Assembly: GCA_963617265.1 (NCBI GenBank)
Contig: CAVEOB010000002.1
Span: 5,215-69,214, forward strand
DNA length: 64,000 nt
Direction: 5' to 3'
Source of the DNA: Mediterraneibacter gnavus
Lineage (GTDB): Bacteria > Pseudomonadota > Alphaproteobacteria > RF32 > CAG-239
The stretch's first letter is position 1; each line of letters begins with the position of its first letter. The notes under the pieces are model-generated. The model was not told the origin of the DNA, did not search any database, and saw only the letters and a program-made list of their open reading frames with translations. A program made the position numbers and the translations under genes. This document shows, in pieces, positions 479 to 22,198 of this stretch.

Positions 479-1861
479 ATGAAAGCACCAAAGCTGCATA
501 ATATCTTAAAGGTATTGTTTATTGCCTTTTCCCTGCTGTTTTTGCTGACAGCCTGCAGCACCGAAGAAGGCGGAAACGGTGTTGGACAGGAAGATCAACG
601 CAAAGCGGCAGAAATGCAGAGCACTTGCTGGCAAACCGGCTTTCTGAAACTTTTTTACAAAAATATCGGCACTCAAACCCTGAATGTTTACAGCAACCTG
701 ACTAAAGAAAATCTGCTCAATATTGTTTTGCTGGGTTTCACTATTTGGATGGCGTATCAAATTCTGCGCCACATCAGCACGCCTACTCCCGAATCTTTGG
801 GCGAATTTTGGACCAAGATTGTCCGCAAAGCCTTTTTATGTGCGTTTTGCGGTATTTTAGCCTCTTCTACCGAGCAAATTTACTACGTGATAAATAACTT
901 TATATTTCCTATATACATCACCATTTTAGAGTTTACGTCCGAAATTATGCAAAGGCTGGCAAAAGACCCCGATGCACAAGTAAAGTTCGTTGCTTTGACA
1001 TCAACATTCAGCGATGATAAAGCAGAAGGAATTATGTGCGAAGATTACGGCAACGCCAACTGGGGACAAAGCGGCTGCAAGTTCAACCCTAAAAGCATGA
1101 CGGACTTTTCGGCAAAATCTTTTCCGGAAGAACCGCTTAATATGCTGAGCTGCATGGCATGCGCCGTCAGCGCTAGACTTTCTATCGGCTATGACATTGC
1201 CATACGCTTAATGAAGATTGTCAGCCTGACCAGTTTTATCTGCGGCTGTTTCTTAATTGTTTGGTTCACCATTGCCAAGCTCTGTTTTGTGCTCTATTTA
1301 GCCGACAGTATTTTCCGTTTGAATATGATAATGATTATTTTGCCGTTCCTGATAATGGCATATCCGTTTGAACAAATCCGCAAATGGAGCGTGACCGGTT
1401 TCAAAATAATTCTCAATTCTTCGGCTATTATGTTTTGTTTGGGCATCATTGTTTCCATGACCATTCTCGCCATGCAGAAATTATTGACGCAGGACGGTAT
1501 CGGACTGGCGGAACAAAGCAAATATGAAAATTTCGGCACCACCGCCATGGCGCTTATCTTTATGGGCTTTTTAATTGTCAAGGCAACCGGTATGTCTGTG
1601 GAGCTTTCCAACAAAATCACCGGAGGCGGCGGCAAAGCCGGCATGCAGCGCAAAATTCAGCAGCTAGTTGCTATGGCGGCAAAATGGGGATTTCACATTG
1701 TTTCCGGCGGCGCAGGCAAAATTGCCACTTCCGTCATAGACCATGTGGAATCTTTGCGTAAAGCCCGCGCCAAGGTACAAAAAGCAACAGCAAAAATCAA
1801 AGCTGTTCAGCAAAAAATGGATAAGTTAAGGGGGATAAACCGCAATGAAAAAGATAGTTAG
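479..1861 (+). CDS. VirB6/TrbL-like polytopic membrane lipoprotein (paralogue)
   Basis: 460 aa with a lipobox (LLLTA-C) and many hydrophobic helices. Motif A (LGFTIWMAYQILRHISTPTPESLGEFW) and motif B (ILPFLIMAYPFEQIRKW) are shared with the next ORFs and resemble the VirB6 core as I remember it. The tail is Gly/Lys-rich (GGGGKAGMQRK). The family call is made by eye, not by HMM. Confidence 0.6.
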   Translation: MKAPKLHNILKVLFIAFSLLFLLTACSTEEGGNGVGQEDQRKAAEMQSTCWQTGFLKLFYKNIGTQTLNVYSNLTKENLLNIVLLGFTIWMAYQILRHISTPTPESLGEFWTKIVRKAFLCAFCGILASSTEQIYYVINNFIFPIYITILEFTSEIMQRLAKDPDAQVKFVALTSTFSDDKAEGIMCEDYGNANWGQSGCKFNPKSMTDFSAKSFPEEPLNMLSCMACAVSARLSIGYDIAIRLMKIVSLTSFICGCFLIVWFTIAKLCFVLYLADSIFRLNMIMIILPFLIMAYPFEQIRKWSVTGFKIILNSSAIMFCLGIIVSMTILAMQKLLTQDGIGLAEQSKYENFGTTAMALIFMGFLIVKATGMSVELSNKITGGGGKAGMQRKIQQLVAMAAKWGFHIVSGGAGKIATSVIDHVESLRKARAKVQKATAKIKAVQQKMDKLRGINRNEKDS

Positions 1862-2387
1862 TCTCTCTAAAAGTTTTTTATATTTGCTTATTTTTACGCT
1901 GTGCTTCAGCTTTGCCGGCGCAAGTTTAAGCTATGCCGATGATGTAGAAAAAACTGCCGACAATAAAGAAGTTGCGGGAACTTGCACCAAAGCAGCCATG
2001 GATTCGATGTATAATGCCAAAGATGCGCAAAACTGCTGGTATTGCCGCATTGTTACTTTGATGACCGATGCTTTTTTGCAGGCAGCAGAAAGTTCAATTC
2101 CCACCACGCAGAGTTTAGGCAAGATCATTCTCAAATGGGGCTTTTTAATTTGGCTGGGAATTTTTCTTTTGCAGCAACTTAGTTCCATGGGCGGAATAAC
2201 CCCCGGAAAAATGCTGCAAGAAATTTTTATGATGGGATTTAAGTGTGCGTTTGCCTATTACGCGCTGGAAATGGGCACAGATTTTATCACCAACTACATT
2301 TTGAACCCGATTGTTTCAACCGGTACCGGAATTGGCAAATCAATTTTAACGGAAATGTTGGCGCAAAACGGAGCGGTAAGTGGTTAA
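1845..2387 (+). CDS. N-terminal half of a VirB6/TrbL-like core (possible gene fission product)
   Basis: 180 aa with a signal peptide (..LSYA-DD). It contains only motif A (WGFLIWLGIFLLQQLSSMGGITPGKML), preceded by a CWYC motif as in 4776-8024 (CTTC). It overlaps the upstream ORF by 17 nt and ends 14 nt before the next start. Confidence 0.55.
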   Translation: MKKIVSLSKSFLYLLIFTLCFSFAGASLSYADDVEKTADNKEVAGTCTKAAMDSMYNAKDAQNCWYCRIVTLMTDAFLQAAESSIPTTQSLGKIILKWGFLIWLGIFLLQQLSSMGGITPGKMLQEIFMMGFKCAFAYYALEMGTDFITNYILNPIVSTGTGIGKSILTEMLAQNGAVSG

Positions 2388-2400
2388 AAAGGCGGTTATC

Positions 2401-4755
2401 ATGAAAAAGTTTAAGAAATACATACTTATAACCATCGCAAGTTTGCTGCTTTGCACAAGCACTGCTTTTACTTTGTCCTATGAAGAAGCGTATTTAACCG
2501 CCACCTTGTTCGGCGAAGCTGGCGGCGAAGGTGTCACCGGCATGCAAACCGTTGCCAGCGTGATTATGAACCGCCGCAACTATTATCAGGCTCACGCTAA
2601 AGGCGGACAAACGGTAAAACTATCTGACGTCTGCTTGGCAAGATACCAATTTTCATTTTGGAATGATAAAAGAAACTGGACTGTTCAAAACATAGAAAGC
2701 TGGGCAAGCAAACTAAACAGCGCTAATGCTCGGGCTTGGAACAAATGCTTGGAAATAGCGCGGCAAGCCATTGCCGGAAGCCTGAAAGATGTTACCAACG
2801 GCGCCACTTTTTATTATGCAACCTGGATGGATAAAAAAGGTAAAGCTCCGGCTTGGGCAAGAGGCAGAAACTATAAAGTTGTCGGAAACCATAAAATTGT
2901 CTACGGTGTTGGTTTAAGCGCGCTTAAAACCTGGCATAGCGGCACTTCCCTTGCTGGCGGCGGAGGCGGCAGCAGCTGGAACGGCACTCTTAGCGGAGGC
3001 GGAACTGGCGGCTCCAGCAACTATGATTTAGCCAACGATCCGGAAAATGAGTATGTTTTACCGCCTGAGTGCAAAGGCGCTGCGGAGAAAAACGGGCAAA
3101 TTGTCAACAATGAAATAATGAAACACCGCCTGTTTGCCGAAGATATTTTAATAGACCTAAAAGATATGATGGCGCTGATTTATCAGTCTCTTAGCGTGCT
3201 GTTTGCCCGCGGACACGCTTTGATGTGCTTTTCAACCAAAGTTTCGTTTATCTGTTTGGACGGCGGGGCTGGTCTTTCCGCCGCAATCAAATCATTAGTC
3301 AGCTGCACGGTAGTTGTACCGCTGCTTAACTACTTTATTTCCGGTCTCTTAATTTACCTCACCGGCTTCTTTATGTGCATGTCAATTGGTATGTATTTTA
3401 TAGACATTTCTTTCAAGCTTGGTTTTGCTACTTTGCTTTTACCGCTGTCTATTTCGCTTTGGCCGTTTCCGCCAACCCAAAGCAAATTGTCCGAAAACAT
3501 TGCTATTGTCATCTATAATGCTATGCTGTTTGCCTTTGTTTCAATCGGTACTGCCTATGCGGTAAAATTAGTTGACGCCAGCCTTGGCATGGTAAAAGAT
3601 GCTGAATTTTGGATGATTATGGGTGCGGCAGATAATGGTTTAGGCGACGGTTTGGCAAACACCTTCGCAACTTGGCAAACTCTTAACTCTAAAGACTATG
3701 CGGACAGCATGGAAAAATTCAGTGAATCCTACGATTTAAGCTCGGTTAACATTCTAATCATTCTGTTCGCGTTGATTTTTGGTTTCAAAATCTTATCGTC
3801 CAGCATTCAAAATTATCTTTCAACTTTCTTTGGCGACGGCGCGCTTGGCTCTGCCGACACCGCTATGCACCACCTCGGCACTCAAGCCGTCGGCAAAATA
3901 AAGCAAAGCATTGTAAATCCTACTGCGCGTGTTGCTAGAGATATTGCCTTAAATCAAGGCGGTAAAGGCATAGAAAAACTGGGAAACAAATTGGCTAACA
4001 AAAAATTTGGCGGTGCTGCTGCTCCTGCGCAAGGCGGAACCAATCCGCAACCTTCGCCTTCCGGCGGAGCGAACCCGTCTCCGGCAAGCAATGCCGACGA
4101 CGCTGCCGATAATAACGATACACCTGATAACACTAACGATACGCCGGATACCCCTATAAATAACGATTCGGATAACAGCGGTCAGCCGACAGCTGATAGC
4201 AGCGAAACTCCGCAAACAACAGATAGTGGCTCTCCGCAAACTACAGACAACGGAGCAACCAGCTCTGAAAATTCCAACACCAGAGGAGCACAGTCTGAAA
4301 ATACTCAATCTGCAGAATTACCGCAAACCAAATGGCAGCAATTCAAAAACTACTCCCGCCCTACCGGTCACAGCTTGACAATCGGCAACGCGTTTAAGGC
4401 TGTACACCACCCGCAGCAAGCCTACAGAACCCTTAAACAGCTGGCGCGGCAAGGCTCTCAAGATTGGAAAAATGCGGAAACTCTAAAGGATAAAGGTTCG
4501 CTGGTTTTGAAAAAGAGCGGTCAAGTGGTTATCCGCAGTATCCGCGGCAATGCTAACGAGGCTGCCAACGCCGGAATGGGCATAGCCGGAGGTTTTCTGC
4601 AAAGCCTTGGCAAGAGCATGCAAAAGAAACCACAGCACTACTATAGAGAACGCCAAAAACAGAAAAACAACCGCAGCTCTGACGACAGCGAATATCAACG
4701 CCAGCTAGATGCAGAATATCAAAGCGAGCAAGAAAGAAACAACAGTTCTAACTAA
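2401..4755 (+). CDS. SleB/CwlJ-type cell-wall hydrolase fused to the C-terminal half of a VirB6/TrbL-like core
   Basis: The ORF track starts at GTG 2380. I prefer ATG 2401 (MKKFKKYILITIASLLL signal peptide; AAGGCGG 6 nt upstream). The Hydrolase_2-like block (about nt 2479-2910) reads ATLFGEAGGEG..VASVIMNRRN..YQFSFWND..GATFYYATW. It is followed by a Gly-rich linker, then TM helices with motif B (LLLPLSISLWPFPPTQSK), then a Pro/Thr/Asp/Asn low-complexity tail. Confidence 0.65.
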   Translation: MKKFKKYILITIASLLLCTSTAFTLSYEEAYLTATLFGEAGGEGVTGMQTVASVIMNRRNYYQAHAKGGQTVKLSDVCLARYQFSFWNDKRNWTVQNIESWASKLNSANARAWNKCLEIARQAIAGSLKDVTNGATFYYATWMDKKGKAPAWARGRNYKVVGNHKIVYGVGLSALKTWHSGTSLAGGGGGSSWNGTLSGGGTGGSSNYDLANDPENEYVLPPECKGAAEKNGQIVNNEIMKHRLFAEDILIDLKDMMALIYQSLSVLFARGHALMCFSTKVSFICLDGGAGLSAAIKSLVSCTVVVPLLNYFISGLLIYLTGFFMCMSIGMYFIDISFKLGFATLLLPLSISLWPFPPTQSKLSENIAIVIYNAMLFAFVSIGTAYAVKLVDASLGMVKDAEFWMIMGAADNGLGDGLANTFATWQTLNSKDYADSMEKFSESYDLSSVNILIILFALIFGFKILSSSIQNYLSTFFGDGALGSADTAMHHLGTQAVGKIKQSIVNPTARVARDIALNQGGKGIEKLGNKLANKKFGGAAAPAQGGTNPQPSPSGGANPSPASNADDAADNNDTPDNTNDTPDTPINNDSDNSGQPTADSSETPQTTDSGSPQTTDNGATSSENSNTRGAQSENTQSAELPQTKWQQFKNYSRPTGHSLTIGNAFKAVHHPQQAYRTLKQLARQGSQDWKNAETLKDKGSLVLKKSGQVVIRSIRGNANEAANAGMGIAGGFLQSLGKSMQKKPQHYYRERQKQKNNRSSDDSEYQRQLDAEYQSEQERNNSSN

Positions 4756-4775
4756 TGGCAGAAAAAGAGGAATAA

Positions 4776-7700
4776 ATGAGAAAGCGGCAAACATTTTTAC
4801 AAAAACTTTCAACAAAACTGCTGATACTTTGTTTAAGTGCAGGCTGCTTTGCTTTGTCTGCTGCTCCGGCTTTTTCCAGCTGCAACGGCGTTACTCCTAA
4901 ATGCAGCGCCGCCACCAACAGTGAATCGCAGGGCGGCTGCTCGCCAAACAAAACTTCAAGCGGTTCCTTAGTCGGCAGCGCTTCTCAACAAGTTAAAGCA
5001 AAATGTGTTGCCGACAAAACCAGCGGCGGGTGTTTTAACTCCGTTCCGGTCAGCAGTGTTGGCTCATACAACCGCGAAGGCGCCCGCTCCTCCACTCGAA
5101 ACCACTACGGCAGCGATTTGGGCACTGGCAAAAAAACTAACGTGCTTGCCTATGCTGCAGCTGACGGCGTTGTTATGGGCTGTTCCATATCCACTGGCGG
5201 CGGACGTACCACCGTTATCCGCCACACCAAACACTGTGACGGCGCCAGCAAAAACGGACAATATTATTCCACCATTTACCGCCATTTATTCAAACAAACA
5301 AAATGTAGCGGCGAAGTAAAAAAAGACCAAGCGATTGGTATTGTCGGCGGTTCTAACGCTTCCAGCCGCTCCGGTCCGGTCTGCGATAACCCTCTTCAAG
5401 CTAAAAATTGTTCTCATTACTATGCAATCCACCTGCACTTTGAAGTTGTTAACAGCGCTATGTCTGCAAGTTCAACTTATGTGGGCGGCAGTCAAACCAT
5501 GCAAGCGTCTTGCGGTAACCTGCAAGCCCTTTGCGGCGGCTGTCCTACCAGCACAAAGTCTTGTTTGGGCGGCATGCAAAGCTTCAGTGACGGCAATTCG
5601 GCTTCCGGCAGCGAGGTTGACGATGCCAGTATGCCTGTTGGAGCAGGCGCTCCGAACGGTGAAGAATTTGTTGACGGCAGCGGCGAGTCTTCTTGCATAC
5701 TTTCCGATTATTTGGATAAGCAAACCTGCACCACCTGCGGTATTTTCAAAACCATTTTCAACGCCGCCAGCAACCTTGCGCAAACTGCTATCAGCAAATT
5801 AGCGGTTCCCAGCAAGAATCTTGTGCTTATCGGCTTTTTAATTTGGCTTGCCATTTATGTTTTGAAACAAATTTCCTCTTTCCAAGGCGCCTCCCCTGGG
5901 GATTTGCTGAAAGGCATATTCCTGCAGGGCGCCCGCGTCGCCATTGTTGTATATATTTTATCCGGCGCGCTTTATCAGGTAATGGACATAACTTTAACCC
6001 CTGTAATGCAAACTGGCTTAACCTTTGCCAACATGCTCAACCCTAACTCCAACTGCGACAGTTCCGCCGACTATATGGGTGGTATCGTCGGCTATGACAC
6101 CGACAAGGGCATGCAGGAAACTTCTCAAGGCGGCTTGCCTCGCAACCTTGGACAATCCATTATCTGCACCATCAAAAATTTGGAAGACAGCGTCGGCGTT
6201 CTCTTGGCACTCGGCAACTATTCCACCTGCTACGCTTTTCATGACAAGGCTTTATGGGACGGCGTTATCCCGCACCTAGGCTACTTCTTGTCCGGCATGG
6301 GATTATGGCTGGTCGGCGTCTTTTTGCTCTTTGCCTTTCCATGGTGCCTGATAGACTGCATTTTGCAGCTGTGCATTGCCGCGGCGATGATTCCATGTTC
6401 TATAGCCGCTTTTGCCTTTAAATCAACGGCTAAATACCTTGGCATTATCTGGAACTTCTTTATGAACGCCATGTTCAACCTGATATTCTTAGCCGTATTG
6501 ATGTTTATTTTAACCTCTATGTTCAAAGAATGGATAGGTCTGACCGATGAATCGCTTTCCACTTTTGACCCCGTATTGCTAATCACCGCCAAAGCAAACG
6601 GGCTTGCGTGGTGGGGTGTCGGATTTTTCAAAATCTTTGCCTTTGTCTTCTTGTTTGTATGCTTTATTGATGAAGTTCCGTCTATGGCAAGCAAATTTGC
6701 AACCGGAGCCGACTTTGGTCGCCAAGGCATCGGGCGTATGGTCGGTGGTGCGGTCGCTTCAGCCGCTAAGCCGATAGCCAAAGGCGCTGGTCACATGGCT
6801 AAAAGAGGCGCGCAATCTGTTGGTGAAGCCACAAACTCGCTTGCCGGCAACTGGGTTCGCAGCAAAAAGAACCAGCTGAAAGGCATGGCTTTAGTTGCTC
6901 TCGGCGGACGCAAACTCCGCGACGCCGATGGCAATGTGGTCGGCTATCAGGCTCGTTTCAAAGGTATCCCAGGGTTTACGCAAACCCGCACCGTTACCAA
7001 AGACGCTAACGGCGTGTGGACGCAAACCAAAGAAACGCATCAAAAAACTGTTGCCGATAAAGCCTTTAAGCCAATGACCGACGCTAACGGCGAAACTACA
7101 TTTGCTGTCAGAACCAGCGGCAAAAGCGCGTTTGCCCAATATGAGCAAATGACCAAATCCGTTCAGGAAGACGGCACCGTTAAATATACCTCAAAAGACG
7201 GCAGCAGCGTTTTAGTTACCGACCCAAACGGTAATATACTTAAATATAAGCGCGCTAAAGATACGGATATGGTAACTGAAAGCCACAAAGGCAGCGTGCA
7301 AACCACCAATGACGCCTTCATGAGCAAGCGCACCATGGTTGACGCCAATGGCAAAGTAATCGGCAGCGATGTGCAGTTCAAAAACGTAAGCTCAAAATAC
7401 TTAATTAACAAAGACGGTTCAACCAATATGCACGCCTATAATCAAATTATGAACGGCGTCAGCGCCGAAAATAAAACCGACGCTATGGCGGCAATGACGG
7501 CAATGCACATAAAAGCGCGCGGTCAAAACCTCGACAGCCGTTTCAAAGACCGTAAAGTTACAATGAATAAGGACGGCAGCGTTACTATTCATCAAGTCAA
7601 CAATGACGGCAGCAAGCAAGAAATACGCGCCTCTAGGGTCAACGGTCAAATGATTATAGAAAACAAAACCACTAGCAGCAACGGCAGCATCACCCTGCAA

Positions 7701-8024
7701 AAGAGCAACGGCATGCAAAACAAAACCACATCTTTTGCTAAACAGGCTGATGGAACTTTTATTAAAACCGTAAAATACAGCTTTACCGATGAAGTCCACA
7801 GCCGCAGCCGAATTTCTCAGCCTTTAGATGAAAACGGCGCTTGGGGCTATGGTGTGGACGCGCAAAAAGCCATGGCAGGCTTTAACTCTCAAGAGTTCCA
7901 AGAACACCTTGACCAGCTGCAAGATGAAAAACTGAAGAATGGTTTGCGCAAGACCGTACTTACGGCTGAAGAACTGAAAGATATGTTAGCAGGTAAAGAT
8001 GTTAAAGGCATAGCTTCTAAATAG
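4776..8024 (+). CDS. M23/LytM peptidase domain fused to a complete VirB6/TrbL-like core with a long C-terminal extension
   Basis: 1082 aa with an AGAGGA RBS and a signal peptide. The M23 motifs HYGSDLG (HxxxD) and HLHFEV (HxH) lie at about nt 5100-5450. Motif A is IGFLIWLAIYVLKQISSFQGASPGDLL and motif B is AAMIPCSIAAFAFKSTAKY, followed by several TM helices. The last 380 aa or so are hydrophilic with recurring D-x-(N/D)-G-x turns. Confidence 0.7.
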   Translation: MRKRQTFLQKLSTKLLILCLSAGCFALSAAPAFSSCNGVTPKCSAATNSESQGGCSPNKTSSGSLVGSASQQVKAKCVADKTSGGCFNSVPVSSVGSYNREGARSSTRNHYGSDLGTGKKTNVLAYAAADGVVMGCSISTGGGRTTVIRHTKHCDGASKNGQYYSTIYRHLFKQTKCSGEVKKDQAIGIVGGSNASSRSGPVCDNPLQAKNCSHYYAIHLHFEVVNSAMSASSTYVGGSQTMQASCGNLQALCGGCPTSTKSCLGGMQSFSDGNSASGSEVDDASMPVGAGAPNGEEFVDGSGESSCILSDYLDKQTCTTCGIFKTIFNAASNLAQTAISKLAVPSKNLVLIGFLIWLAIYVLKQISSFQGASPGDLLKGIFLQGARVAIVVYILSGALYQVMDITLTPVMQTGLTFANMLNPNSNCDSSADYMGGIVGYDTDKGMQETSQGGLPRNLGQSIICTIKNLEDSVGVLLALGNYSTCYAFHDKALWDGVIPHLGYFLSGMGLWLVGVFLLFAFPWCLIDCILQLCIAAAMIPCSIAAFAFKSTAKYLGIIWNFFMNAMFNLIFLAVLMFILTSMFKEWIGLTDESLSTFDPVLLITAKANGLAWWGVGFFKIFAFVFLFVCFIDEVPSMASKFATGADFGRQGIGRMVGGAVASAAKPIAKGAGHMAKRGAQSVGEATNSLAGNWVRSKKNQLKGMALVALGGRKLRDADGNVVGYQARFKGIPGFTQTRTVTKDANGVWTQTKETHQKTVADKAFKPMTDANGETTFAVRTSGKSAFAQYEQMTKSVQEDGTVKYTSKDGSSVLVTDPNGNILKYKRAKDTDMVTESHKGSVQTTNDAFMSKRTMVDANGKVIGSDVQFKNVSSKYLINKDGSTNMHAYNQIMNGVSAENKTDAMAAMTAMHIKARGQNLDSRFKDRKVTMNKDGSVTIHQVNNDGSKQEIRASRVNGQMIIENKTTSSNGSITLQKSNGMQNKTTSFAKQADGTFIKTVKYSFTDEVHSRSRISQPLDENGAWGYGVDAQKAMAGFNSQEFQEHLDQLQDEKLKNGLRKTVLTAEELKDMLAGKDVKGIASK

Positions 8025-8025: not shown

Positions 8026-8087
8026 TTCGGCAAATATCGCTAAAAATTTTACAAAAATTTAGACATTTGCCGAAGTGTTTTTGTGTT
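8026..8087 (+). terminator. Putative rho-independent terminator closing the VirB6-like operon
   Basis: A 10-bp perfect inverted repeat, TTCGGCAAAT (8026-8035) / ATTTGCCGAA (8065-8074), is followed by the T-rich stretch gtgtttttgtgtt. The loop is long (about 29 nt) and internally A/T self-complementary. Confidence 0.45.
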
Positions 8088-8206
8088 ACCGAGACCAGCC
8101 AGAACAAGGTGTTTAACTTTGTTTTTCCAAAAGTGACTGTACATAACTATTTTTTTTGTCTTGCTTTTTTCAAACTTAACCATATTATGAGCAATAGCTA
8201 TTATTT

Positions 8207-9196
8207 ATGGAGAAAGATGATATGGAAGAAATTATTTTCCCTAATCAAATCAGAATGCACAGAAGATTGCGCGGTATGTCTATGCAGGAATTGGCTGATC
8301 ATTTGGGAGTCAGCTTGTCGGCGATTTCTAAAATTGAAAAAGGTTACCGCCGTCTCAATCAAGAACAGCTGATTCAGGTTGCCGAACTTATTGACTGTTC
8401 GCTGCAAGATTTATACGTTAATGAGCAAAATTCGCAGCAAGATGTTGTCCAAGCTTGGAAACGCGAACAGGAAAGACGCTGCAAAATCAACCAAAATGCC
8501 GGTTTGAAAACTTTGGGCGCAGGTTTGCGCCACATTCGCACCGACAAAGGCTTGACTTTAATTGAAGTTGCCGAAAGCGCCGATATGACTCTGTCGGTTT
8601 ATCACCGTATAGAAATGGGACAAAGAGAAGTTTCTGACAAAGAATATCAAAATATCGCCAAAGCTTTTTCTATGCCTCTCGACAAATTGAAAGCCGAAAT
8701 CAAAAAGCTGGAAAATGAAGGCGTTTTAGAAGATATTATCGAACACAATGAAACACGCTATAAACTTTTGAACAACTCTAGATATTCTAATGTTGCTGCG
8801 CAAACCGCCAATGACGATGAAACGGCTATGCTGCCTGTTTTTGGCACCAGCAACGCCGAAGGCAATATTGTCATTGACCGCGCCAACGCCGTAAAAGAAG
8901 TTGCTTGTCCGGTGCAGCTGCAAAACAAACCGGAAGCTTATGCCGTAAATTTGTGCACCCGCCGTTTGGGTTCGCTTTTGCCAAGCCGCGCTATTTTGTT
9001 TATAGATAAAACAGAAGTTGTCAGCGCTGGCGACATTGCCTTATATTACATCAGCGAAACCGAAGCTATGCTAATCAGCGTCCGCGAAGATGAAAACGGT
9101 CAGCTTTACGGCTTGCGTTGGAATCCTGATGAACGAACAAATTTCAGCAACAGCGATTTAACAAAAATTCATAAGGTTGTGGCTATCAACTTATAA
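8207..9196 (+). CDS. XRE-family regulator with two HTH domains and a degenerate S24/LexA-like C-terminal domain
   Basis: 329 aa. HTH 1 is IRMHRRLRGMSMQELADHLGVSLSAISKIEKG and HTH 2 is LRHIRTDKGLTLIEVAESADMTLSVYHRIEMG. The C-terminus (LPVFGTSNAEGN...GDIALYY...KIHKVVAINL) aligns by eye with the LexA/CI S24 domain, but the GDSM-type Ser position reads CTRRL. An alternative start at ATG 8222 lies 9 nt after GGAG. Confidence 0.7.
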   Translation: MEKDDMEEIIFPNQIRMHRRLRGMSMQELADHLGVSLSAISKIEKGYRRLNQEQLIQVAELIDCSLQDLYVNEQNSQQDVVQAWKREQERRCKINQNAGLKTLGAGLRHIRTDKGLTLIEVAESADMTLSVYHRIEMGQREVSDKEYQNIAKAFSMPLDKLKAEIKKLENEGVLEDIIEHNETRYKLLNNSRYSNVAAQTANDDETAMLPVFGTSNAEGNIVIDRANAVKEVACPVQLQNKPEAYAVNLCTRRLGSLLPSRAILFIDKTEVVSAGDIALYYISETEAMLISVREDENGQLYGLRWNPDERTNFSNSDLTKIHKVVAINL

Positions 9197-9228
9197 TTTT
9201 TTTGAATATTTGTTATATTTTAATAAAG

Positions 9229-9270
9229 AATTTACTCTCTCGTTTTTATAAAGCGGGAGTAAATTTTTTT
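9229..9270 (+). terminator. Rho-independent terminator
   Basis: Stem AATTTACTC(TC) 9229-9239 pairs with (GG)GAGTAAATT 9255-9265, followed by a T7 run. Confidence 0.6.
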
Positions 9271-9284
9271 AAACAGGTTTTATA

Positions 9285-10103
9285 GTGTCAGACGTAATAA
9301 GAGAAAATGATGTTGCCAGCGAAAAAGATGAAGAATATCCGATTCTTGATGCTCAGCGCTATCTAAATATTTTTCATCAAATTCACATTTTCAACGCCGA
9401 AAAAAGAGCTGAATTTGACCAATCCCTTTTGCAGATGAATGACAAAATTAAAAAGCTGCTGGTCAATATGCCGGGCGGAAAAGTTCTGCTGGAACATATA
9501 AAAGAACTTGAAGATGATGAAGAAGTTTCGGACGAAACGCTTAATCTGATTACTAAAAACATTGAAGAAGAAAAAAAATCAGCAGAAACGCATCACAAAA
9601 AACACAACATAAACGTAACCGTCGGCGAGCTGGCTATTGGCAATGAATTTGCTGAAAAGTTGGCAAACTCTTTGGTTGACGCACTCAAAAGCGCAAATCT
9701 GGCAACAAATTCCGACCTGACGCATACCATCAGCACAATTCCGCTTTTTGGTTCAACCTCGGCTGACGGCAGCCTGCTTATCAGCAAATCCACAATCCTT
9801 AGATTGGTATCCTGCCCCATTGCCTTGCAAAACAAACATTCGGTTTATGCCGTTAAACTTAACACTAATTGCGTTGGGCTGGATTTATCTGACAAAGCCA
9901 TACTTTATATTGACAAATCCGAGCTTATCGGCTCGGGTGATTTAGCGCTCTATTTTTTCAACAGAGCTGAAGCCAAACTGGTCCGGCTCTATACGGACGA
10001 ACGCGGACAATTATATGGTTTGCGCAGCAATCCCGAAGAAAAAATACTGTTTACTATCAGCAATATTGCAAAAATCCACAAAGTAGTGCTTATTGGACTA
10101 TAA
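9285..10103 (+). CDS. Hypothetical protein: unknown N-terminal domain plus S24/LexA-like domain, with no HTH
   Basis: 272 aa with a GTG start. The C-terminal ~120 aa (IPLFGSTSADGS...GDLALYF...KIHKVVLIGL) are a paralogue of the C-terminus of 8207-9196. The N-terminal ~135 aa (PILDAQRYLNIFHQIHIFNAEKRAEFDQSLL..PGGKVLLEHIKE..NIEEEKKS..FAEKLANSL) are a paralogue of the N-terminus of 10202-11296. Confidence 0.65.
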   Translation: MSDVIRENDVASEKDEEYPILDAQRYLNIFHQIHIFNAEKRAEFDQSLLQMNDKIKKLLVNMPGGKVLLEHIKELEDDEEVSDETLNLITKNIEEEKKSAETHHKKHNINVTVGELAIGNEFAEKLANSLVDALKSANLATNSDLTHTISTIPLFGSTSADGSLLISKSTILRLVSCPIALQNKHSVYAVKLNTNCVGLDLSDKAILYIDKSELIGSGDLALYFFNRAEAKLVRLYTDERGQLYGLRSNPEEKILFTISNIAKIHKVVLIGL

Positions 10104-10135
10104 TTTTTCGCTCTTACCGCCTATATTTTAACAAG

Positions 10136-10182
10136 AAATTTACTCTCTTGCTTATATATTGAAAAAGAATAAGTTGTTTTTT
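10136..10182 (+). terminator. Degenerate copy of the 9229-9270 terminator
   Basis: AAATTTACTCTCTTG is homologous to the 9229 arm. The 3' arm AGAATAAGTT pairs imperfectly (8 of 10 plus a wobble), followed by gTTTTTT. Confidence 0.35.
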
Positions 10183-10201
10183 ATGGAGTGAGGCATAACA
10201 G

Positions 10202-11296
10202 GTGGCAGAAGACTTAATTGATGATGATGTAGAATATTCCAGCAATCAGGAAGAGGAAGACCCGATTCTGGTTGCCCAGCGTTATTTAAATATTTTCCAC
10301 CAAATTCATATTTTCAATCAGGCAAAAAAAGATGAATTTGACGAGTCTCTGCTTAATATCTCGGAAAAAACCAAAGAATTGCTGGCAACACTGCCGGGCG
10401 GACGCGTTTTTTTGGAACACGTTAAAGAAGTCGAAGAAAAACAAGGTAAAAATTCCGGCGGCACCAGTGAACTAATCGCTCAAAACATCGAAGAAGAAAA
10501 AAAATCAATCGACAGCCTGAAACAACACTCCGGAAACGGCGGCGAACTTACTTTAGGTGCTGATTTTGCCGAAAGTTTAGCAAATTCTTTGGCGGCGGCG
10601 CTGCAAAGCAGCAATGCTGCGTCTAATAACAATATGACCGACTTGGCTATTTTGCTGAACAAATCGTTCAATGCCTATGCTGCCAGTATGCAAACTTTAA
10701 CCAACCGTCTTGCCGGTCAGGTTAATACCACAGCAGCGACACAGCAGCAAACCTTTTCTGCGGCGCCGGTGCAGCCTGCAGGAATGACAGCCCAGCAGCA
10801 AAACAATTCTTCGACCACTGTTAACAACATCAATATGGATACTTCCTACTTTAGTAGCATAAATCAAACGCTTATGCAAAATGATGCCCGCCGCCATGAA
10901 GATATGATGCAAATTATCGCTGCTTTGAATAAAAATATTCTGAACGGCATCTCCCCGTCAGAAAACAGCGATGGACTTGCCGCGGCATTAAATTACGGAA
11001 TACCAGCAACGGCTCTTGCCGAAGCATTGCGTCAAAACAACTCGCAGCAGCTTGAAGCCATAAAATCTTTCGGTAAAATGCTTGTGCAGGCAATCACCCA
11101 ATCACAGCAGGAATTAGCGCAGACCTTGACGCAGTCCGCACCGCGCTCTACCGTAAAAGTCGTGGTTTCGCAAGACGTTGATGTAGAAGACCAAACCGGC
11201 GGCAGTGCAGTTGTTTCTAAACAAAATACTTCTAATGCTCAGCAGCCGAAAAAGAATGAAAATAACAACGCAAAAAAAACTGAACCGATAAGTTAA
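10202..11296 (+). CDS. Hypothetical protein: the same unknown N-terminal domain plus a Gln/Asn/Ala-rich C-terminal region
   Basis: 364 aa with a GTG start 8 nt after GGAGTGAGG. The N-terminus (PILVAQRYLNIFHQIHIFNQAKKDEFDESLL..PGGRVFLEHVKE..NIEEEKKS..FAESLANSL) is paralogous to 9285-10103. There is no TM segment or signal peptide. Confidence 0.6.
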   Translation: MAEDLIDDDVEYSSNQEEEDPILVAQRYLNIFHQIHIFNQAKKDEFDESLLNISEKTKELLATLPGGRVFLEHVKEVEEKQGKNSGGTSELIAQNIEEEKKSIDSLKQHSGNGGELTLGADFAESLANSLAAALQSSNAASNNNMTDLAILLNKSFNAYAASMQTLTNRLAGQVNTTAATQQQTFSAAPVQPAGMTAQQQNNSSTTVNNINMDTSYFSSINQTLMQNDARRHEDMMQIIAALNKNILNGISPSENSDGLAAALNYGIPATALAEALRQNNSQQLEAIKSFGKMLVQAITQSQQELAQTLTQSAPRSTVKVVVSQDVDVEDQTGGSAVVSKQNTSNAQQPKKNENNNAKKTEPIS

Positions 11297-11337: not shown

Positions 11338-12654
11338 TTGCTTAGCCGCATAAATAAAAGCTTAAACAAAATTAACGACCTGAAAAATCAGAATAAAAAC
11401 GACCAGCAGCCAAACAAAAAAATTGATGAAAAAGACTCTAAAAAAGACAATTCGGCAAATGAGCATAAAAATAACGAGCCTTTAACTGCTAATCTTAAAG
11501 ACAAAGAAAAACAACCAATTGCCCCTGTTCAGCAGCCGAAACCTGCTCCCAAACCTGAACTGGTTAAAGAACAGCCGAAACCTGCTCCTAAACCTGAACC
11601 AGTTAAGGAACAACCGAAACCTGCTCCTAAACCTGAACCTGTTAAAGAGCAGCCGAAACCTGCGCCAAAGCTGGAACCGATTAAAGAGCAACCGAAACCT
11701 GCTACTAAACCTGAACCAGTTAAAGAGCAGCCAAAGCCTGCTCCCAAAGATGAACCTGTTAAAGAGCAGCCAAAACCTGCTCCTAAACCTGAACCGGTTA
11801 AAGAGCAGCCGAAACCTGCGCCAAAGCCTGAACCGATTAAAGAGCAGCCGAAACCTGCTCCAAAATCTGAACCTGTTAAGGAACAGCCGAAACCTGCTCC
11901 AAAATCTGAACCGGTTAAAGAGCAGCCTAAACCTGCGCCAAAGCCTGAACCGGTTAAAGAGCAACCGAAGCCGGCTCCCAAAGATGAAAACCTTAGTATA
12001 GAAGATATATTGGCAGCCATTCCTTCCGAAGATGACAATCCTTCTGAACCGGATATTTTCTCTGCTGATTCTTTCACCGCACCGGCTGCAGTTCAAAAAT
12101 CTGAACCAGCAAAACCTGTTGAAGCAAAAGCACCGCCTGTCAGCAAGCCTGCTGCAAATTTGCCGAAAGAACCTGAACCGCAAAACCCTGAGTATAAAAA
12201 GTCACAGCTGCATTCGTACGAAGATGCTTTGCTGAAAATCAAAAATGCGCTAAGCTCAGATGATGATATTTCCTTGGACAATATAAAGCCTATATCTTTG
12301 GGCGGTGACGATGAATTGCCGAAACCGCAAGCTCCGGCAGCGAATGCACAGCAAACTCAATCTGCCTCCGCAAAAGAAAACAATTCTACGGCAGACGACG
12401 GCGATTGGGAATATGTCGATGAAAACGGCAATCCGGTTTCCGGCGATGACGGCGATTGGGAATATGTTGACGAAAACGGCAATCCGGTTTCCGGCGATGA
12501 CGGCGATTGGGAATATGTCGATGAGAACGGCAATCCAATTTCCGGCGATGACGGCGATTGGGAATATGTCGACGAAAACGGTAATCCGGTTTCTGGTGAT
12601 GACGGCGATTGGGAATATGTCGATGAAAACGGCAATCCTATACCGCAAAATTAA
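11338..12654 (+). CDS. Tandem-repeat protein: Lys-rich N-terminus, 13-aa Pro/Lys/Glu repeats, and 17-aa acidic DGDWEYVDENGNP repeats
   Basis: 438 aa. The only candidate start is TTG 11338, because the frame opens at 11284 and contains no ATG or GTG. No convincing SD is present, so the start is uncertain. No signal peptide or TM segment is visible. Confidence 0.55.
   Translation: MLSRINKSLNKINDLKNQNKNDQQPNKKIDEKDSKKDNSANEHKNNEPLTANLKDKEKQPIAPVQQPKPAPKPELVKEQPKPAPKPEPVKEQPKPAPKPEPVKEQPKPAPKLEPIKEQPKPATKPEPVKEQPKPAPKDEPVKEQPKPAPKPEPVKEQPKPAPKPEPIKEQPKPAPKSEPVKEQPKPAPKSEPVKEQPKPAPKPEPVKEQPKPAPKDENLSIEDILAAIPSEDDNPSEPDIFSADSFTAPAAVQKSEPAKPVEAKAPPVSKPAANLPKEPEPQNPEYKKSQLHSYEDALLKIKNALSSDDDISLDNIKPISLGGDDELPKPQAPAANAQQTQSASAKENNSTADDGDWEYVDENGNPVSGDDGDWEYVDENGNPVSGDDGDWEYVDENGNPISGDDGDWEYVDENGNPVSGDDGDWEYVDENGNPIPQN
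11533..11988 (+). repeat. 39-bp coding tandem repeat, about 11.7 copies (QPKPAPKPEPVKE)
   Basis: I counted 11 full units plus a partial one directly in the sequence. The units differ mostly at synonymous third positions. Confidence 0.9.
12394..12648 (+). repeat. 51-bp coding tandem repeat, 5 copies (DDGDWEYVDENGNP[VI]SG)
   Basis: Five consecutive 51-bp units were read directly. The differences between units are mostly synonymous. Confidence 0.9.
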
Positions 12655-15447: not shown

Positions 15448-16320
15448 CTATTTAACTGCTTCGGCGCCGGAAATAACATCTATCAGCTCATCGGTAATAT
15501 TTTCCTGCCGCTCCTGCTGATATTCCAAATTCATCTGTTCCAAGCTTTCATCAATATTTTTTTCAGCGTTTTGCATATTGGTCATACGCGTATAATGCTC
15601 CGCCGCCAGCGAATAATTAAGCTGACTTGCCAAAGCAATAGTTAAATATTCATTCAGCAGGGCGGCAAACATCTGCTTGCGTTCAATCGGTATCAACGGA
15701 AGATTATTTGTTCCCCATGGCTTTTCTTTCAACTTTTGATAAGCGGCAAAATCAAACGGAATAATCTGCTGTTTCTGCACGCTGACCGGTTCATTTTTAT
15801 TACGCTTATGATACCAAACGCAAACATTTGTAATCTGTTCCCTGCGCGTTGCCTCATCAATTTTCATTATCACGGTTTCGGCTATGGTATTCACCATTTT
15901 CACCGAATTTGCAACAGCGTACTTGGCATAAAGTTTTAAGTTGCTTTGCGCCGCCAAGCCGCCGATTCTTTTACCGATAGTCAAAAACAATGTATTTTTA
16001 AGCGAAACGCCTTGTTTTTTTAAATCAGCCTTGGCTTTATCCAAAATCTCTTTGTTAAACTTACCGACCATACCGTTATCGGTGCCGATTAAAATCACCA
16101 GCTGCCGGTTTGGAGCTGCTTTTATTTTATTATTCGGCAGTCCACCTTGTTTAATCAAAGCCTGAAAAGCGTCCTGCAGATTGCGGCGATATTGCGCCAG
16201 CGCCGTATTTGCCTGTTCATACTGCAAAATACTTACTGAAGACAGCGCTTTCATTGTGCCGACTATCTCCCGCAAATCCTCCGTAACCTTAATCCGCTTT
16301 TTCAACGCTTCAATCGTCAT
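15448..16320 (-). CDS. atpG: ATP synthase gamma subunit (N-type operon)
   Basis: 290 aa. The N-terminus [22 protein letters not shown] and C-terminus [15 protein letters not shown] are typical of F1 gamma. It is the last gene of the atpDCQRBEFAG order. Confidence 0.85.
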
Positions 16321-17830
16321 CAGACTTTATCCCCTCACGCTGCAAGGCTGATTTGAAAACCGAAAGCATTTTTTCCTGTGTTTCAGTCGACAGCTTCTTA
16401 CGGGCTAAAATATCGGCTACTTCTGCTGAAAATTGCGTTTGCAAAACCTCGCACACAGCTTTTTGCGCTTTCTTATTGTCTTCAGTTGCCAAACCATCAA
16501 ATAAACCAGCGTTAGTCGCCATAAACACGGCAATCTGCTCCGGCGCTGTCAGCGGCTCAAAGCGGCTTTGCTCCAGCACAGCACGAATAGCCCGCCCGCG
16601 GTTGATACGCTTTTTAGTTTCCTTATCCAGCTGGGTGCCGAATTTAGTAAACGATTCCAACTCTTCAAACTGCGAATAAAACAGTTTCAGCGGACCAATC
16701 AAAGTCTTATACGCCGGCAGCTGAGCATCTCCGCCCACGCGGGAAACCGAACGTCCGGTGTCTATCGCCGGCATAATGCCTTTTTGATACAAATTAGCCG
16801 CCAAATAAATCTGTCCGTCGGTAATAGAAATAATATTGGTCGGAATATAAGCCGATATATTTCCGGCTTCAGTCGACACTATCGGCAGCGAAGTCAGCGA
16901 ACCGCCGCCCAATTCTTCGCGCAGATGAGTCGAACGCTCCAGCAAGCGGGAATGAATGTAGAATATATCCCCCGGAAAAGCTTCTCGTCCAGGCGGACGG
17001 CGCAGCAGCAGCGACATTTCACGATAAGCACGGGCGTGGTTGGTCAAATCGTCATAAACCACCAGCACATCTTTGCCTTGCGCCATAAAATATTCGCCGA
17101 TAGATGTCGCCGCATATGGAGCTGCATATTGCATACCCGCCGTATCGTTTGCCGCAGCCGCCACCACGATTGTTTGGTTCATCACGCCGTATTTTTCCAA
17201 GTCGGCGATAACCGAAGCCACTGCGGAGTTACGCTGTCCGATAGCGCAATAAATGCAGATAACGCCGGTTTGCTTTTGATTTATAATCGTATCAACGGCA
17301 ATGGCTGTTTTACCAGTCTGCCTGTCGCCTAAAATAAGCTCGCGCTGTCCACGTCCGATAGGCGTAAACGCGTCAACCGCTTTAATCCCCGTCTGCAATG
17401 GAGTTTGCACCGGCGCTCTATCCATAATCGGATAGGCTTCCATTTCCAAAGCCCGACGCTCGCTGTAGGCTATCGGTCCTTTGCCGTCTAAAGGCTTGCC
17501 CAGCGGATTTATCACCCTGCCCAGCAATCCCTCGCCGACCGGAACGTCCAAAACACGCCCGCTGCGGCGCACTCTGTCGCCTGCTTTCAAACTATCCGGA
17601 CTGTCTAAAAACACCACGCCGACCGCATCTTTTGCCAAAGTCTGCACCATTCCCCACACGCCGTTAGGAAATTCCAGCAGTTCTTCCATTTGTGCCTTAG
17701 CCAAACCTTTTACAATCGCCGTACCGGCAGAAATAGAATGAATAACACTGACTTCCTCTGTTTTTAGCTCCGCTTTGGTTTGAGCAATTCCCTGCTCTAT
17801 GGCGGCAAATGTTTTGTCTGTTTTAATCAT
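16310..17830 (-). CDS. atpA: ATP synthase alpha subunit
   Basis: 506 aa with Walker A GDRQTGKT. Alpha-subunit-like along its whole length. Confidence 0.95.
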
Positions 17831-17833
17831 TTT

Positions 17834-18610
17834 CTATCCCCTGTTTATTAACTGCTGTACATCATTTTGCATATTCTTTTGAAACTCGTTCATATATCCC
17901 GCTAGGTTCCAGTCTATCAGCTGCTCATCAGCCTGCAAAGCCACGCCGCAAACCAGCTTTTTATCAACTTCAAATTTGAATTTTGTTTCTTCCGGCAATT
18001 CCAACTGCACCCGCAGAAAATCTTTTATTTTTTGCTTTTGTTCTGCCGAAATTTTTTGCGCCGAACGGACAAACAGCTGTTTTTTATTTTGATAAGCTGC
18101 AGCAAACTCTTGTTTTTTACGAACCGACAAAGCACTTATTTTTTCTTTGAGCTTGTCTATCATCAAATCATTCAGCGAAACATCTGCCATTTGTTTCAAC
18201 GCACCATCAGCAAGCTTGTTGAAATGTTCCAAAATCAAGTTTTGCATAGCCAGTTCAAATGTTTTCTGCTCGCCGGCTAAACGCTGTTTCCATTGGCTTT
18301 TATCAGTTTCAAACTGCGCTTTTGCCTCGTTTGCCAATTTTTCTGCCAAAACAGCGGCTTCCGCACGGGTTTGACTCAAAATATTTTGTTTCTGCGCATC
18401 AATTTCCGCCATTTTCTGCTTGCATTCCGCCTCCAAGCGCAAAGCCTCTTTATGTGAAGAAGCCGTTTTTTTCAGCTCGCGTTCAATAAACTTCTGCCGC
18501 TCGTCAACTGCTTTCAGCACCGGCAAATATAAAAAACGGCGCAGCAAATACAACAGCAGCAGCAGATTAAACATCTGAGCAAAAAATGTAAACAAATCAA
18601 TACTCATCAA
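17834..18610 (-). CDS. atpF: ATP synthase b subunit (long form; no separate delta gene in the operon)
   Basis: 258 aa with one N-terminal TM helix followed by a long charged coiled coil. Its position between atpE and atpA supports the call. Confidence 0.7.
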   Translation of the reverse strand: MMSIDLFTFFAQMFNLLLLLYLLRRFLYLPVLKAVDERQKFIERELKKTASSHKEALRLEAECKQKMAEIDAQKQNILSQTRAEAAVLAEKLANEAKAQFETDKSQWKQRLAGEQKTFELAMQNLILEHFNKLADGALKQMADVSLNDLMIDKLKEKISALSVRKKQEFAAAYQNKKQLFVRSAQKISAEQKQKIKDFLRVQLELPEETKFKFEVDKKLVCGVALQADEQLIDWNLAGYMNEFQKNMQNDVQQLINRG

Positions 18611-18627
18611 CTTTTCCTAAAATATAA

Positions 18628-18903
18628 CTATTGAGCCTGTGCAATTGCATAATTCCAAAACGGATTGGCATACAGCACCAAAAACGCAATCAGCAAAGCA
18701 TACAAAGCCGTGGTTTCCACCATGGCAATTGCCACAAACATTGTGCTGCGGATACGGCTTGCCTCGTCCGGCTGCTGCGCCATTGCCTGCAACGCCGAAG
18801 CCGCCACATGACCTTCGCCCATAGCCGAACCGATACTGCCGATACCCATACACAGGCAAGCACCCAAAACCGAAAACGCCCCAATTAAAGAAATTGCATC
18901 CAT
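18628..18903 (-). CDS. atpE: ATP synthase c subunit with Na+-type ligand set plus an extra helix-1 Glu
   Basis: 91 aa. The helix-1 motif is GEG. The helix-2 motif AMVETTALY aligns with AVAESTGIY of the I. tartaricus Na+ c-ring (E65, S/T66, T67, Y70). Confidence 0.9.
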   Translation of the reverse strand: MDAISLIGAFSVLGACLCMGIGSIGSAMGEGHVAASALQAMAQQPDEASRIRSTMFVAIAMVETTALYALLIAFLVLYANPFWNYAIAQAQ

Positions 18904-19673: not shown

Positions 19674-20007
19674 TGTTTTTTTGCTCCTCGTCAAATTTAA
19701 CAATCCGTCCTTTTTCGTGTATCACTATTATCATTTTAGTAACGAAAAAAACTAAAACATATAGCAAAACCACCACCGGATTGCGCTGCGCTATCAGCAC
19801 CAACACGCCGAAAAACAGCAAAATACGCATCAAAGCCACGCTTGCAAATAAACGCACTTTATGCTTGACGGCGCTTAAATGATTCAAACTCCAGCGCAGG
19901 CTCTGAAAATAAACCACGCCGACCAACGCTCCGCAAATCGGCGCCGCCAGCATCTGCCACAGCGCCATTTGCCGCCACATCTGCCACAAATAAGAATCAG
20001 CGTCCAT
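19660..20007 (-). CDS. atpR: N-ATPase accessory membrane protein AtpR
   Basis: 115 aa with three hydrophobic helices. Its position between atpQ and atpB is as in N-type ATPase operons. Confidence 0.6.
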   Translation of the reverse strand: MDADSYLWQMWRQMALWQMLAAPICGALVGVVYFQSLRWSLNHLSAVKHKVRLFASVALMRILLFFGVLVLIAQRNPVVVLLYVLVFFVTKMIIVIHEKGRIVKFDEEQKNNGAV

Positions 20008-20347: not shown

Positions 20348-20734
20348 TTTCATCTCCTTTGAGTTTGCCGAACCCGCGCACCAAGCCAAGCTCCAAACGA
20401 GCCATTGCTAAATTAAGCTCTTTGCGGCGCTCTTCATTTTCTTTAAAATCATTTCTGATAACCAGCGAAAGAGTGTCCAGCGATTTGCTGATTACGGCAT
20501 TTTGCACGCTCATAGTCACGTTCTGTCCTTTTTTGACCACAATTCCGCGGTGACAAGCCACATAACTTTCAGCATTATTTTCATCGGTATATCGCACTAT
20601 ATTCGGTTTCATCGCCGCCACAAAATCCACATGTTTCGGCATCAGTGTATAAAAGCCGTTCAACGTTTCAAACGTGACTTTCAGCGCTTTTGTCTGCAAA
20701 ACCGTCCCCAAAGGCGAACAAACCGTCAGCTGCA

Positions 20735-20735: not shown

Positions 20736-22198
<1,463 letters not shown>

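Follow-up and report, generated by a model that had tools for sequence, protein, structure and literature searches.

A paralogue of a double-HTH regulator, lacking the DNA-binding domains and very probably born of one tandem duplication, in an envelope-protein locus of gut Alphaproteobacteria

Introduction

How does a bacterial regulator acquire a paralogue that has lost its DNA-binding domains, and what may such a paralogue do beside its parent? The question is raised by three adjacent genes at positions 8207-11296 of a 64,000-nucleotide (nt) chromosomal stretch of alphaproteobacterial DNA (contig CAVEOB010000002.1 of assembly GCA_963617265.1; hereafter the window, meaning the whole stretch that was analysed). 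Gene 1 encodes a regulator with two helix-turn-helix (HTH) domains and a C-terminal domain (CTD), gene 2 combines a CTD of the same kind with an N-terminal domain termed X, and gene 3 carries domain X followed by a polar tail. This composition and its coordinates, proposed in an original prediction made from the sequence alone, were borne out by open reading frames (ORFs) and alignments, and the domain bounds given by hidden Markov models (HMMs) lie close to those first suggested. Here we report that gene 2 is very probably the product of a single tandem duplication across the boundary of its two neighbours and is kept by selection, and we weigh its possible functions. The three genes are:

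8207..9196, + strand: gene 1, regulator in which two XRE-type HTH domains, at about residues 15-69 and 102-163, precede a LexA/cI-like CTD (ORF, Pfam and PDB matches).
9285..10103, + strand: gene 2, chimera of X (9291-9713) and CTD (9720-10100), 272 amino acids (aa), GTG start, junction at about residues 147-150 (ORF, alignments, HMM and AlphaFold2 (AF2) model).
10202..11296, + strand: gene 3, X domain (10205-10633) and a Q/N/S/T/A-rich region; 5' fragment of an X-protein gene (ORF, HMM, alignment).

Results

Probable origin of gene 2 by tandem duplication

The CTDs of genes 1 and 2 share 42% identity over 143 aa (E=7e-41), including the strings GQLYGLR and KIHKVV, and the N-termini of genes 2 and 3 share 53% identity over 149 aa (E=4e-45), including all the strings by which the two X domains had been recognised as related in the original prediction. 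HMMs built from relatives found the two domains nowhere else in the window. The likeness is also present in the DNA, as evidenced by direct repeats 907-926 nt apart, of which the two copies are 67-68% identical. The 5' half of gene 2 with its upstream region aligns to the 5' half of gene 3 with its upstream region at 68% identity over 507 nt, and the region 3' of gene 1 is alignable with the region 3' of gene 2. A duplication of the segment CTD-intergenic-X in an ancestor of the form gene 1-intergenic-gene 3 predicts exactly the observed order of HTH-HTH-CTD, X-CTD and X-rest, and we consider it very probable that the trio arose by a single tandem duplication of about 0.91 kb, with the following approximate copies:

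8819..9725, + strand: duplication copy 1, comprising the gene 1 CTD, intergenic region 1 and the X domain of gene 2 (repeat spacing, alignments).
9726..10643, + strand: duplication copy 2, comprising the gene 2 CTD, intergenic region 2 and the X domain of gene 3 (DNA alignment, repeat spacing).

In the proposed course of events, the ancestral locus would have carried gene 1 directly followed by the X-protein gene. In the ancestor of one young subclade, the ends of the duplication would have fallen just before the gene 1 CTD and just after the X domain, and the junction would have produced gene 2 (X plus CTD) in frame, carrying its own copy of the X-gene promoter. The shuffling of modules among three mosaic genes that had been envisaged at first is thereby reduced to one duplication that made one chimera, while the sharing of domains itself is real. 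Similarly, the suggestion that an S24-like domain and its terminator had been duplicated as DNA was right in that the repeat includes the hairpin, but the unit, CTD-intergenic-X, is larger.

Scanning one genome per species with gene 1 gave 73 related loci of 65-99% identity, on each of which the HMMs of the three domains were mapped. The relatives are all Alphaproteobacteria assembled from metagenomes of human, ruminant, horse and chicken guts, Candidatus Scatocola among them. The usual architecture across these loci is gene 1 followed, about 100-200 nt on, by a single X-protein gene, and gene 2 is absent from about 70 related loci. An X+CTD gene between gene 1 and the X-protein gene was found only in the window and in loci L001-L003, L008-L010, L012 and L017, that is, in three lineages of one young subclade. 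Gene 1 is at least 90% identical to that of the window in every gene-2-bearing locus; L011, L013-L016, L040 and L077 are equally close relatives without gene 2. In neighbour-joining trees, which carry no support values, the X domains of gene 2 form a single clade, whose sister group is made up of the gene 3 X domains of this young subclade, and the CTDs of gene 2 likewise form one clade, with very long branches. In a tree built from three flanking proteins, the gene-2-bearing lineages are interspersed among lineages without gene 2, from which we tentatively propose that gene 2 was gained once and lost at least three times.

Since the window and all its relatives are metagenome assemblies, the duplication might be suspected to be an assembly artefact. 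This is scarcely credible given that the copies are so divergent in DNA and that the same architecture was assembled independently in at least nine loci, from different studies and with divergent sequences.

A second chimera of the same gene pair

One further X+CTD protein, P0118 (317 aa, L081:8001-8954), was found among the X-domain representatives. Its locus displays the same synteny, with a gene 1 that is 79% identical to that of the window. The X part of P0118 reaches about 40 residues further into the X-protein than that of gene 2, its CTD shares 68% identity with the CTD of its own gene 1, and both halves cluster with their own lineage (L081/L023), outside the gene 2 clade, in the trees. 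A single ancient event behind both chimeras was considered and rejected, as the X-side breakpoints differ and each half groups with its own lineage. To judge from these breakpoints and trees, the X+CTD fusion arose independently at least twice. The P0118 gene starts 15 nt after gene 1 in L081 and is probably co-transcribed with it.

Selection on gene 2

Gene 2 is intact as an ORF of 272-277 aa in all loci that bear it, in lineages separated by a synonymous divergence (dS) above 1. The ratio of nonsynonymous to synonymous divergence (dN/dS) of gene 2 is 0.04-0.24 among the three lineages, next to 0.03-0.06 for gene 1 among the same lineages, 0.04-0.15 for the X domain of gene 3 and 0.15-0.31 in comparisons between paralogues. 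Between the window and L010 or L001, dN of the gene 2 CTD amounts to 0.44-0.49 and that of the gene 1 CTD to 0.04-0.08. Gene 2 is seen in many metagenomes, with clusters of up to 200 member sequences. These rates indicate that gene 2 is kept by selection and evolves 6-10 times faster than the parental CTD. We regard gene 2 as a dispensable accessory gene that is, in all likelihood, functional.

The shared CTD adopts a LexA/cI-like fold without the catalytic dyad

The two CTDs are delimited as follows:

8810..9193, + strand: gene 1 CTD, LexA/cI-like beta domain with R252 at the Ser position and I290 at the Lys position (HMM; fold assigned via the 42%-identical gene 2 CTD).
9720..10100, + strand: gene 2 CTD (HMM built from relatives).

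Sequence profiles did not relate the CTD to peptidase S24: no match to PF00717 was obtained at E<=1 in Pfam and none in NCBIfam, a search with the CTD profile of all PDB sequences returned no S24 protein at E<=10, and comparison by hhalign with aligned sequences of E. coli LexA, UmuD and lambda cI gave a marginal result (P=0.0024, probability 12%, 39 columns). The AF2 model of gene 2 has a predicted local distance difference test (pLDDT) score of 80-91 over residues 150-272. Its best Foldseek match in the PDB is the CTD of lambda cI (2hnf, E=1.1e-5, template modelling (TM) score 0.66), followed by LexA of T. maritima (3k2z), a lambda-186 hybrid repressor, the 186 cI CTD, the LexA CTD of M. tuberculosis and UmuD'; the top specific matches all lie at a probability of 0.98-1.00 and E=1e-5 to 5e-4. 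Judged on the predicted model, the CTD clearly has the LexA/lambda cI fold. The S24/LexA-like character proposed earlier is thus upheld on the fold, though sequence profiles miss it.

The aligned hhalign segment places K156 of LexA at I290 of gene 1 and V233 of gene 2. The model has a loop of 14 residues between the strands VYAVK and ILYID, the same spacing as FLLRV-14-LLAVH in LexA, so that S119 of LexA falls on R252 of gene 1 and N195 of gene 2. The Ser-equivalent column holds Arg in 78 of 78 gene 1 orthologues and His, Asn or Lys in nine gene 2 orthologues, and the Lys-equivalent column holds Ile, Leu or Val in all 78 gene 1 and all nine gene 2 sequences. The spacing and these counts agree with the by-eye reading of CTRRL (gene 1) and NTNCV (gene 2) at the GMSM position of LexA, and with the view drawn from it that autoproteolysis is unlikely. 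With the Ser/Lys dyad lost, canonical self-cleavage by the gene 1 CTD is very unlikely on sequence grounds, and oligomerisation or partner binding is most likely the only function left to the domain. The CTRRLG loop, at the former active site, never varies among gene 1 sequences but has diverged in gene 2, suggesting that it has a new role in gene 1 which gene 2 does not need. Gene 2 retains the core motifs YAV, GD.AL, GQLYG, NP.E and HK of the domain.

It is highly improbable that the CTD still cleaves itself by non-canonical residues, such as the conserved Thr/Ser (T251) next to the Ser-equivalent position and the conserved H322/K323, which would have gene 1 inactivated in the manner of LexA or cI. 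A Thr or Ser is indeed kept one residue before the Ser-equivalent position, a His-Lys pair is at least 95% conserved at the C-terminus, and where LexA has its Ala-Gly cleavage site, gene 1 has NAEG and gene 2 has SADG, an A-x-G motif rather than A-G. However, the Lys-equivalent position is hydrophobic in 87 of 87 sequences, the Ser-equivalent position is occupied by Arg, His, Asn or Lys, loop lengths equal to those of LexA make a register shift unlikely, and no S24 profile matched at any threshold.

Gene 1 as a putative local regulator

The HTH domains of gene 1 match HTH_3 (PF01381) in two stretches (1.7e-24, 86 bits against a gathering cut-off of 23), and PDB sequence matches are SinR-type to residues 13-79 and ClgR-type to residues 102-163. 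The recognition helices are invariant across all clades. Gene 1 has 329 aa if read from ATG 8207 and 324 aa from ATG 8222; the true start is probably the latter (MEEII), 15 nt downstream of the annotated one, because all relatives start gene 1 at MEEII and a GGAG at 8209-8212 lies 9 nt upstream of it. The gene is preceded by one conserved region:

8138..8188, + strand: promoter-like region of gene 1, TGTACA (8138-8143), TTGCTT (8161-8166), 16-nt spacer and TATTAT (8183-8188), from a 16-species alignment.

When a regulon-wide operator of gene 1 was sought, the inverted repeat and promoter motif were found to be confined to two intergenic regions of the window. Gene 1 would be a local regulator that oligomerises through its CTD as the same fold does in LexA, cI and UmuD.

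The duplicated intergenic element

The two intergenic regions carry the following copies of one element:

9220..9270, + strand: copy 1, X-gene promoter motif TTAATAAAGAATTTAC (9220-9235), 11 nt, TATAAA (9247-9252), within a hairpin (arms 9225-9244 and 9250-9269), then a T-run (alignment, folding).
10128..10182, + strand: copy 2, motif TTAACAAGAAATTTAC (10128-10143), 11 nt, TATATT (10155-10160), with the right arm of the hairpin decayed (alignment, folding).

The hairpin at 9225-9269 after gene 1 folds with -15.9 kcal/mol (z=-4.8) and ends in a T7 tail, and the copy at 10136-10182 after gene 2 shows no fold (z=+0.3), leaving no stable terminator. The pattern TTAAnnnGAAATTTAC-N11-TAnAAT occurs in 84 of 87 regions upstream of X genes, both window copies included, and reads as a sigma-70-like promoter with a -35 box (T/C/A)(T/A)GAAA, a 16-nt spacer and a -10 box TAnAAT. 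An invariant ATTTAC falls in the spacer, which suggests a binding site for a regulator. In distant clades, a separate GC-rich terminator lies upstream of the X promoter motif; in the larger clade of the window, a right arm GAGAGAGTAAA pairs with ATTTACTCTCTC of the promoter, so that the hairpin surrounds the -10 box, usually with a T-run after it. Comparison of the hairpin in 29 species revealed 11 pairs kept, four of them with compensatory changes, and many G-U pairs. Because pairs are kept by compensatory changes and G-U is tolerated, the pattern argues for an RNA hairpin on the + strand acting as the terminator of gene 1. The duplicated element thus appears to be a terminator and an X-gene promoter in one, and copy 1 probably ends the transcript of gene 1 and starts that of gene 2. 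The degenerate recurrence of the terminator after gene 2 that had been noticed from the sequence is confirmed, with the amendment that the element is also the promoter region of the X genes.

Domain X and the X-protein

The remaining features of the X part of the locus are:

9291..9713, + strand: domain X of gene 2 (HMM built from relatives).
11282..11283, + strand: point at which 58 bp are deleted in comparison with L008 and L009, the nearest relatives; the resulting frameshift parts gene 3 from gene 4 (comparison with relatives).
11338..12654, + strand: gene 4, 3' part of the ancestral X-protein gene, with PKPAPKPEPVKEQ repeats and five DGDWEYVDENGNP repeats (ORF, relatives).

In relatives, genes 3 and 4 form one ORF of about 720-860 aa. 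The description of gene 3 as domain X plus a Q/N-rich region (23% Q+N in the tail) is therefore correct in domain content, but gene 3 is only a truncated fragment of a protein of about 860 aa. The deletion could be a real inactivation at the strain level or an assembly error. The PKPAPKPEPVKEQ repeats in the tail of the X-protein (window 11500-12650) have a 39-nt unit, and their copy number differs by 39 and 78 bp between close relatives; the five DGDWEYVDENGNP repeats weakly resemble WW_1, MORN_2 and SSSPR-51 repeats.

A deeper alignment and AF2 modelling gave domain X a core (residues 21-100) predicted as a helical bundle with pLDDT >90, after which come a variable linker and an amphipathic helix that is conserved. 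Neither Pfam nor NCBIfam returned a match, and Foldseek detected no relative (best E=0.49 in PDB and 0.46 in BFVD), in keeping with the earlier view that X is not a well-known family; X is an orphan domain. A profile search of 1.84 billion cluster representatives recovered 358 proteins at E<=1e-3. Among the matches listed, X stands at the N-terminus in 150 of 150, in long and otherwise unannotated proteins; the 147 newly retrieved representatives reach 1281 aa with a median of 654, and the sole other recognisable feature of X-proteins is C-terminal repeats of the WEYVDENGNP type. A 14-residue motif of the core, AQRYLNIFHQIHIF, is invariant among sequences that are otherwise 34-86% identical, and the constraint acts on the protein since differences there are synonymous. 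Both this motif and PGG..LEH are as invariant in gene 2 as in all X-proteins.

The conserved locus and its neighbours

A locus of nine units is kept in relatives, in the order 460, 180, 791, 1082, gene 1, X-protein, 168, 445 and 200 (numbers give lengths in aa). The 791 unit carries a Hydrolase_2 domain and the 1082 unit an M23 domain with transmembrane segments. The X-protein gene heads an operon, X-168-445-200, in which the 168-aa protein is acidic, the 445-aa unit is a lipoprotein and the 200-aa unit is a bitopic protein. The trio had been placed between a VirB6-like and a secretin-like operon and proposed to control both. Neither label was supported: the 460-aa protein matches TrbL (PF04610) only at E=4.8 and 7.3 bits, and the 445-aa lipoprotein has no match to Secretin (PF00263) at E<=10. 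The one conserved control element to be found is that upstream of the X genes, and nothing supports control of the upstream operon.

The four upstream genes (window 479-8024; 460, 180, 791 and 1082 aa) encode proteins with signal- or lipoprotein-like N-termini and polytopic membrane regions, two of them with cell-wall hydrolase domains (Hydrolase_2 and M23). The four proteins match each other's homologues in phmmer searches, and the 180-aa unit is fused to a neighbour in some species. In L004 and L034, the upstream four-gene operon lies apart from gene 1; the L004 locus is flanked by type IVb pilin genes at 1-514 and 16320-16955 (Bundlin/PilS Pfam matches). A 13-nt inverted repeat at window 8026-8074, TTCGGCAAATATC / GACATTTGCCGAA, with arms 23 nt apart, directly follows the stop codon of the 1082-aa gene and precedes a T-rich stretch; its left arm is kept in relatives without the right arm. 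Downstream of the trio, the window carries an ATP synthase operon at 15448-22156 (- strand), with beta ... a, b (fused to an OSCP/delta-like domain), alpha and gamma, in a gene order like that of N-type ATPase operons.

Discussion

Gene 2 shares a homologous CTD with the adjacent repressor, and no HTH was found in it in Pfam or NCBIfam searches. Since it lacks a DNA-binding domain, keeps the core of the CTD and carries an X-type promoter, gene 2 may enter mixed oligomers with gene 1, or compete for the partners of gene 1, modulating DNA binding by gene 1 in a SinI/SinR-like manner. The X domain would then tie this modulation to whatever the N-terminus of the X-protein binds. An antagonist that shares the oligomerisation surface of its repressor has a precedent in SinI/SinR (PMC3163267; PMC10688885). 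In the SinI/SinR (and SlrA/SlrR) pairs of Bacillus subtilis, the antagonist stands beside an XRE-type repressor, has no DNA-binding domain and forms an inactive heteromer (PMC3163267, PMC10688885). Gene 2 likewise adjoins an XRE-type regulator, shares its putative oligomerisation module and has no DNA-binding domain. Unlike gene 2, the Sin module is a pair of helices and not a LexA-like beta domain, and SinI has a single domain where gene 2 adds X. A literature search for comparable bacterial chimeric anti-repressors found nothing relevant.

Gene 1 is built like lambda cI, LexA and UmuD from an N-terminal HTH (XRE type, as in cI) and a C-terminal beta domain, which mediates dimerisation or oligomerisation in those proteins; it differs from them in lacking the Ser/Lys dyad and the Pfam S24 signature, in having A-x-G in place of Ala-Gly, in its tandem rather than single HTH, and in being chromosomal, clade-wide and linked to an envelope-protein locus and not to SOS or prophage genes. 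The CI repressor of coliphage 186 consists of an HTH and an oligomerising CTD and is inactivated by the antirepressor Tum, not by RecA-mediated cleavage. Its CTD structures (2fkd and 2fjr) are among the fold matches of the gene 2 CTD, and in concept it offers the same arrangement, a cI-type repressor under a protein antagonist instead of self-cleavage; Tum, however, has no kinship with the repressor on which it acts, and gene 2 is paralogous to the CTD of its presumed target. With regard to its origin, a chimera of this kind is the textbook product of a duplication whose ends lie within two neighbouring genes of the same orientation. Gene 2 follows this pattern in that the downstream gene supplied its 5' part and the upstream gene its 3' part, joined in frame, with doubling of the regulatory region, and departs from the usual cases in having its breakpoints at domain boundaries, in purifying selection over dS>1 and in a similar fusion having occurred twice in the same pair.

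A duplication origin combined with a SinI-like role of gene 2 as a modulator of gene 1 is the best overall explanation that we can offer, at a little short of an even chance. The functional part taken by itself, action of gene 2 on gene 1 through the CTD, is possible and somewhat below that mark. Several observations weigh against it. The rate of gene 1 is the same with and without gene 2 (0.252 and 0.251 for the CTD). Heteromerisation may have been lost, as the gene 2 CTD is only 42-45% identical to that of gene 1 and its CTRRLG loop has diverged. Close relatives have apparently lost gene 2 on three occasions or more, so that it cannot be essential, and P0118 is a singleton in a collection of 5.8 billion proteins, from one assembly. 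Moreover, recurrence of the fusion alone is weak evidence of function, because any duplication ending inside two adjacent co-oriented genes gives such a chimera mechanically.

Gene 2 might instead work through its X domain, as an X decoy or adaptor homodimerised by the CTD that competes with or assists the X-protein for a partner, which might be the acidic 168-aa protein or one of the operon's envelope proteins. The invariant X core in gene 2 implies a retained binding function, the X domain is more constrained than the CTD (61-69% against 47-49% aa identity between lineages), the CTD has lost the loop invariant in gene 1, the rate of gene 1 is unaffected, and an X-type promoter drives gene 2. 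We nevertheless hold this to be rather unlikely: the conserved core motifs of the gene 2 CTD fit heteromerisation as well, and X has no structural relative and no known partner. Less likely still, the two X+CTD fusions would be a "Rosetta-stone" sign that X and the dead-protease domain of gene 1 bind each other. The former S24 substrate cleft, with the invariant CTRRLG loop, would then sense the free N-terminus of the X-protein in an FlgM-like feedback on the X operon, which the chimeras, as tethered mimics, would rewire; if true, gene 1 would read out unassembled or unexported X-protein. Of a similarly low, marginally smaller probability is that gene 2 is a functionless by-product of the duplication in slow decay, as its patchy occurrence, apparent repeated loss, fast evolution, weak ribosome-binding site and GTG start in the window, and the singleton status of the second chimera might suggest. 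Against this stand the full-length ORFs in three lineages at dS>1 with the low dN/dS given above, the conserved cores of both domains, and a second old chimera that is itself intact, with dN/dS of 0.15-0.30. Modulation of gene 1 by gene 2 through the CTD thus stays our preferred, if tentative, account of its function.

The elements of this system are of known kinds, namely a pseudo-protease regulator of the cI/LexA fold, a candidate antagonist paralogous to its repressor and a chimera at a duplication junction, here combined. The value of the case lies chiefly in how cleanly its evolution can be reconstructed and in the fusion having recurred independently, and is limited by the organisms being uncultured. 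It brings to attention a conserved, uncharacterised envelope locus of common gut Alphaproteobacteria, defines the orphan N-terminal domain X with 358 cluster representatives and a 14-residue invariant motif, and provides a family-wide case of a double-HTH regulator in which the LexA/cI fold persists as a pseudo-protease. The occurrence of the fusion twice in the same pair, together with selection, makes gene 1 and the X-protein a concrete candidate for a physical interaction between a regulator and its target. With both parents still present, the locus shows how a bacterial regulator gains a DNA-binding-deficient paralogue: one duplication across a gene boundary would supply the pairing domain, the promoter and the second domain at once.

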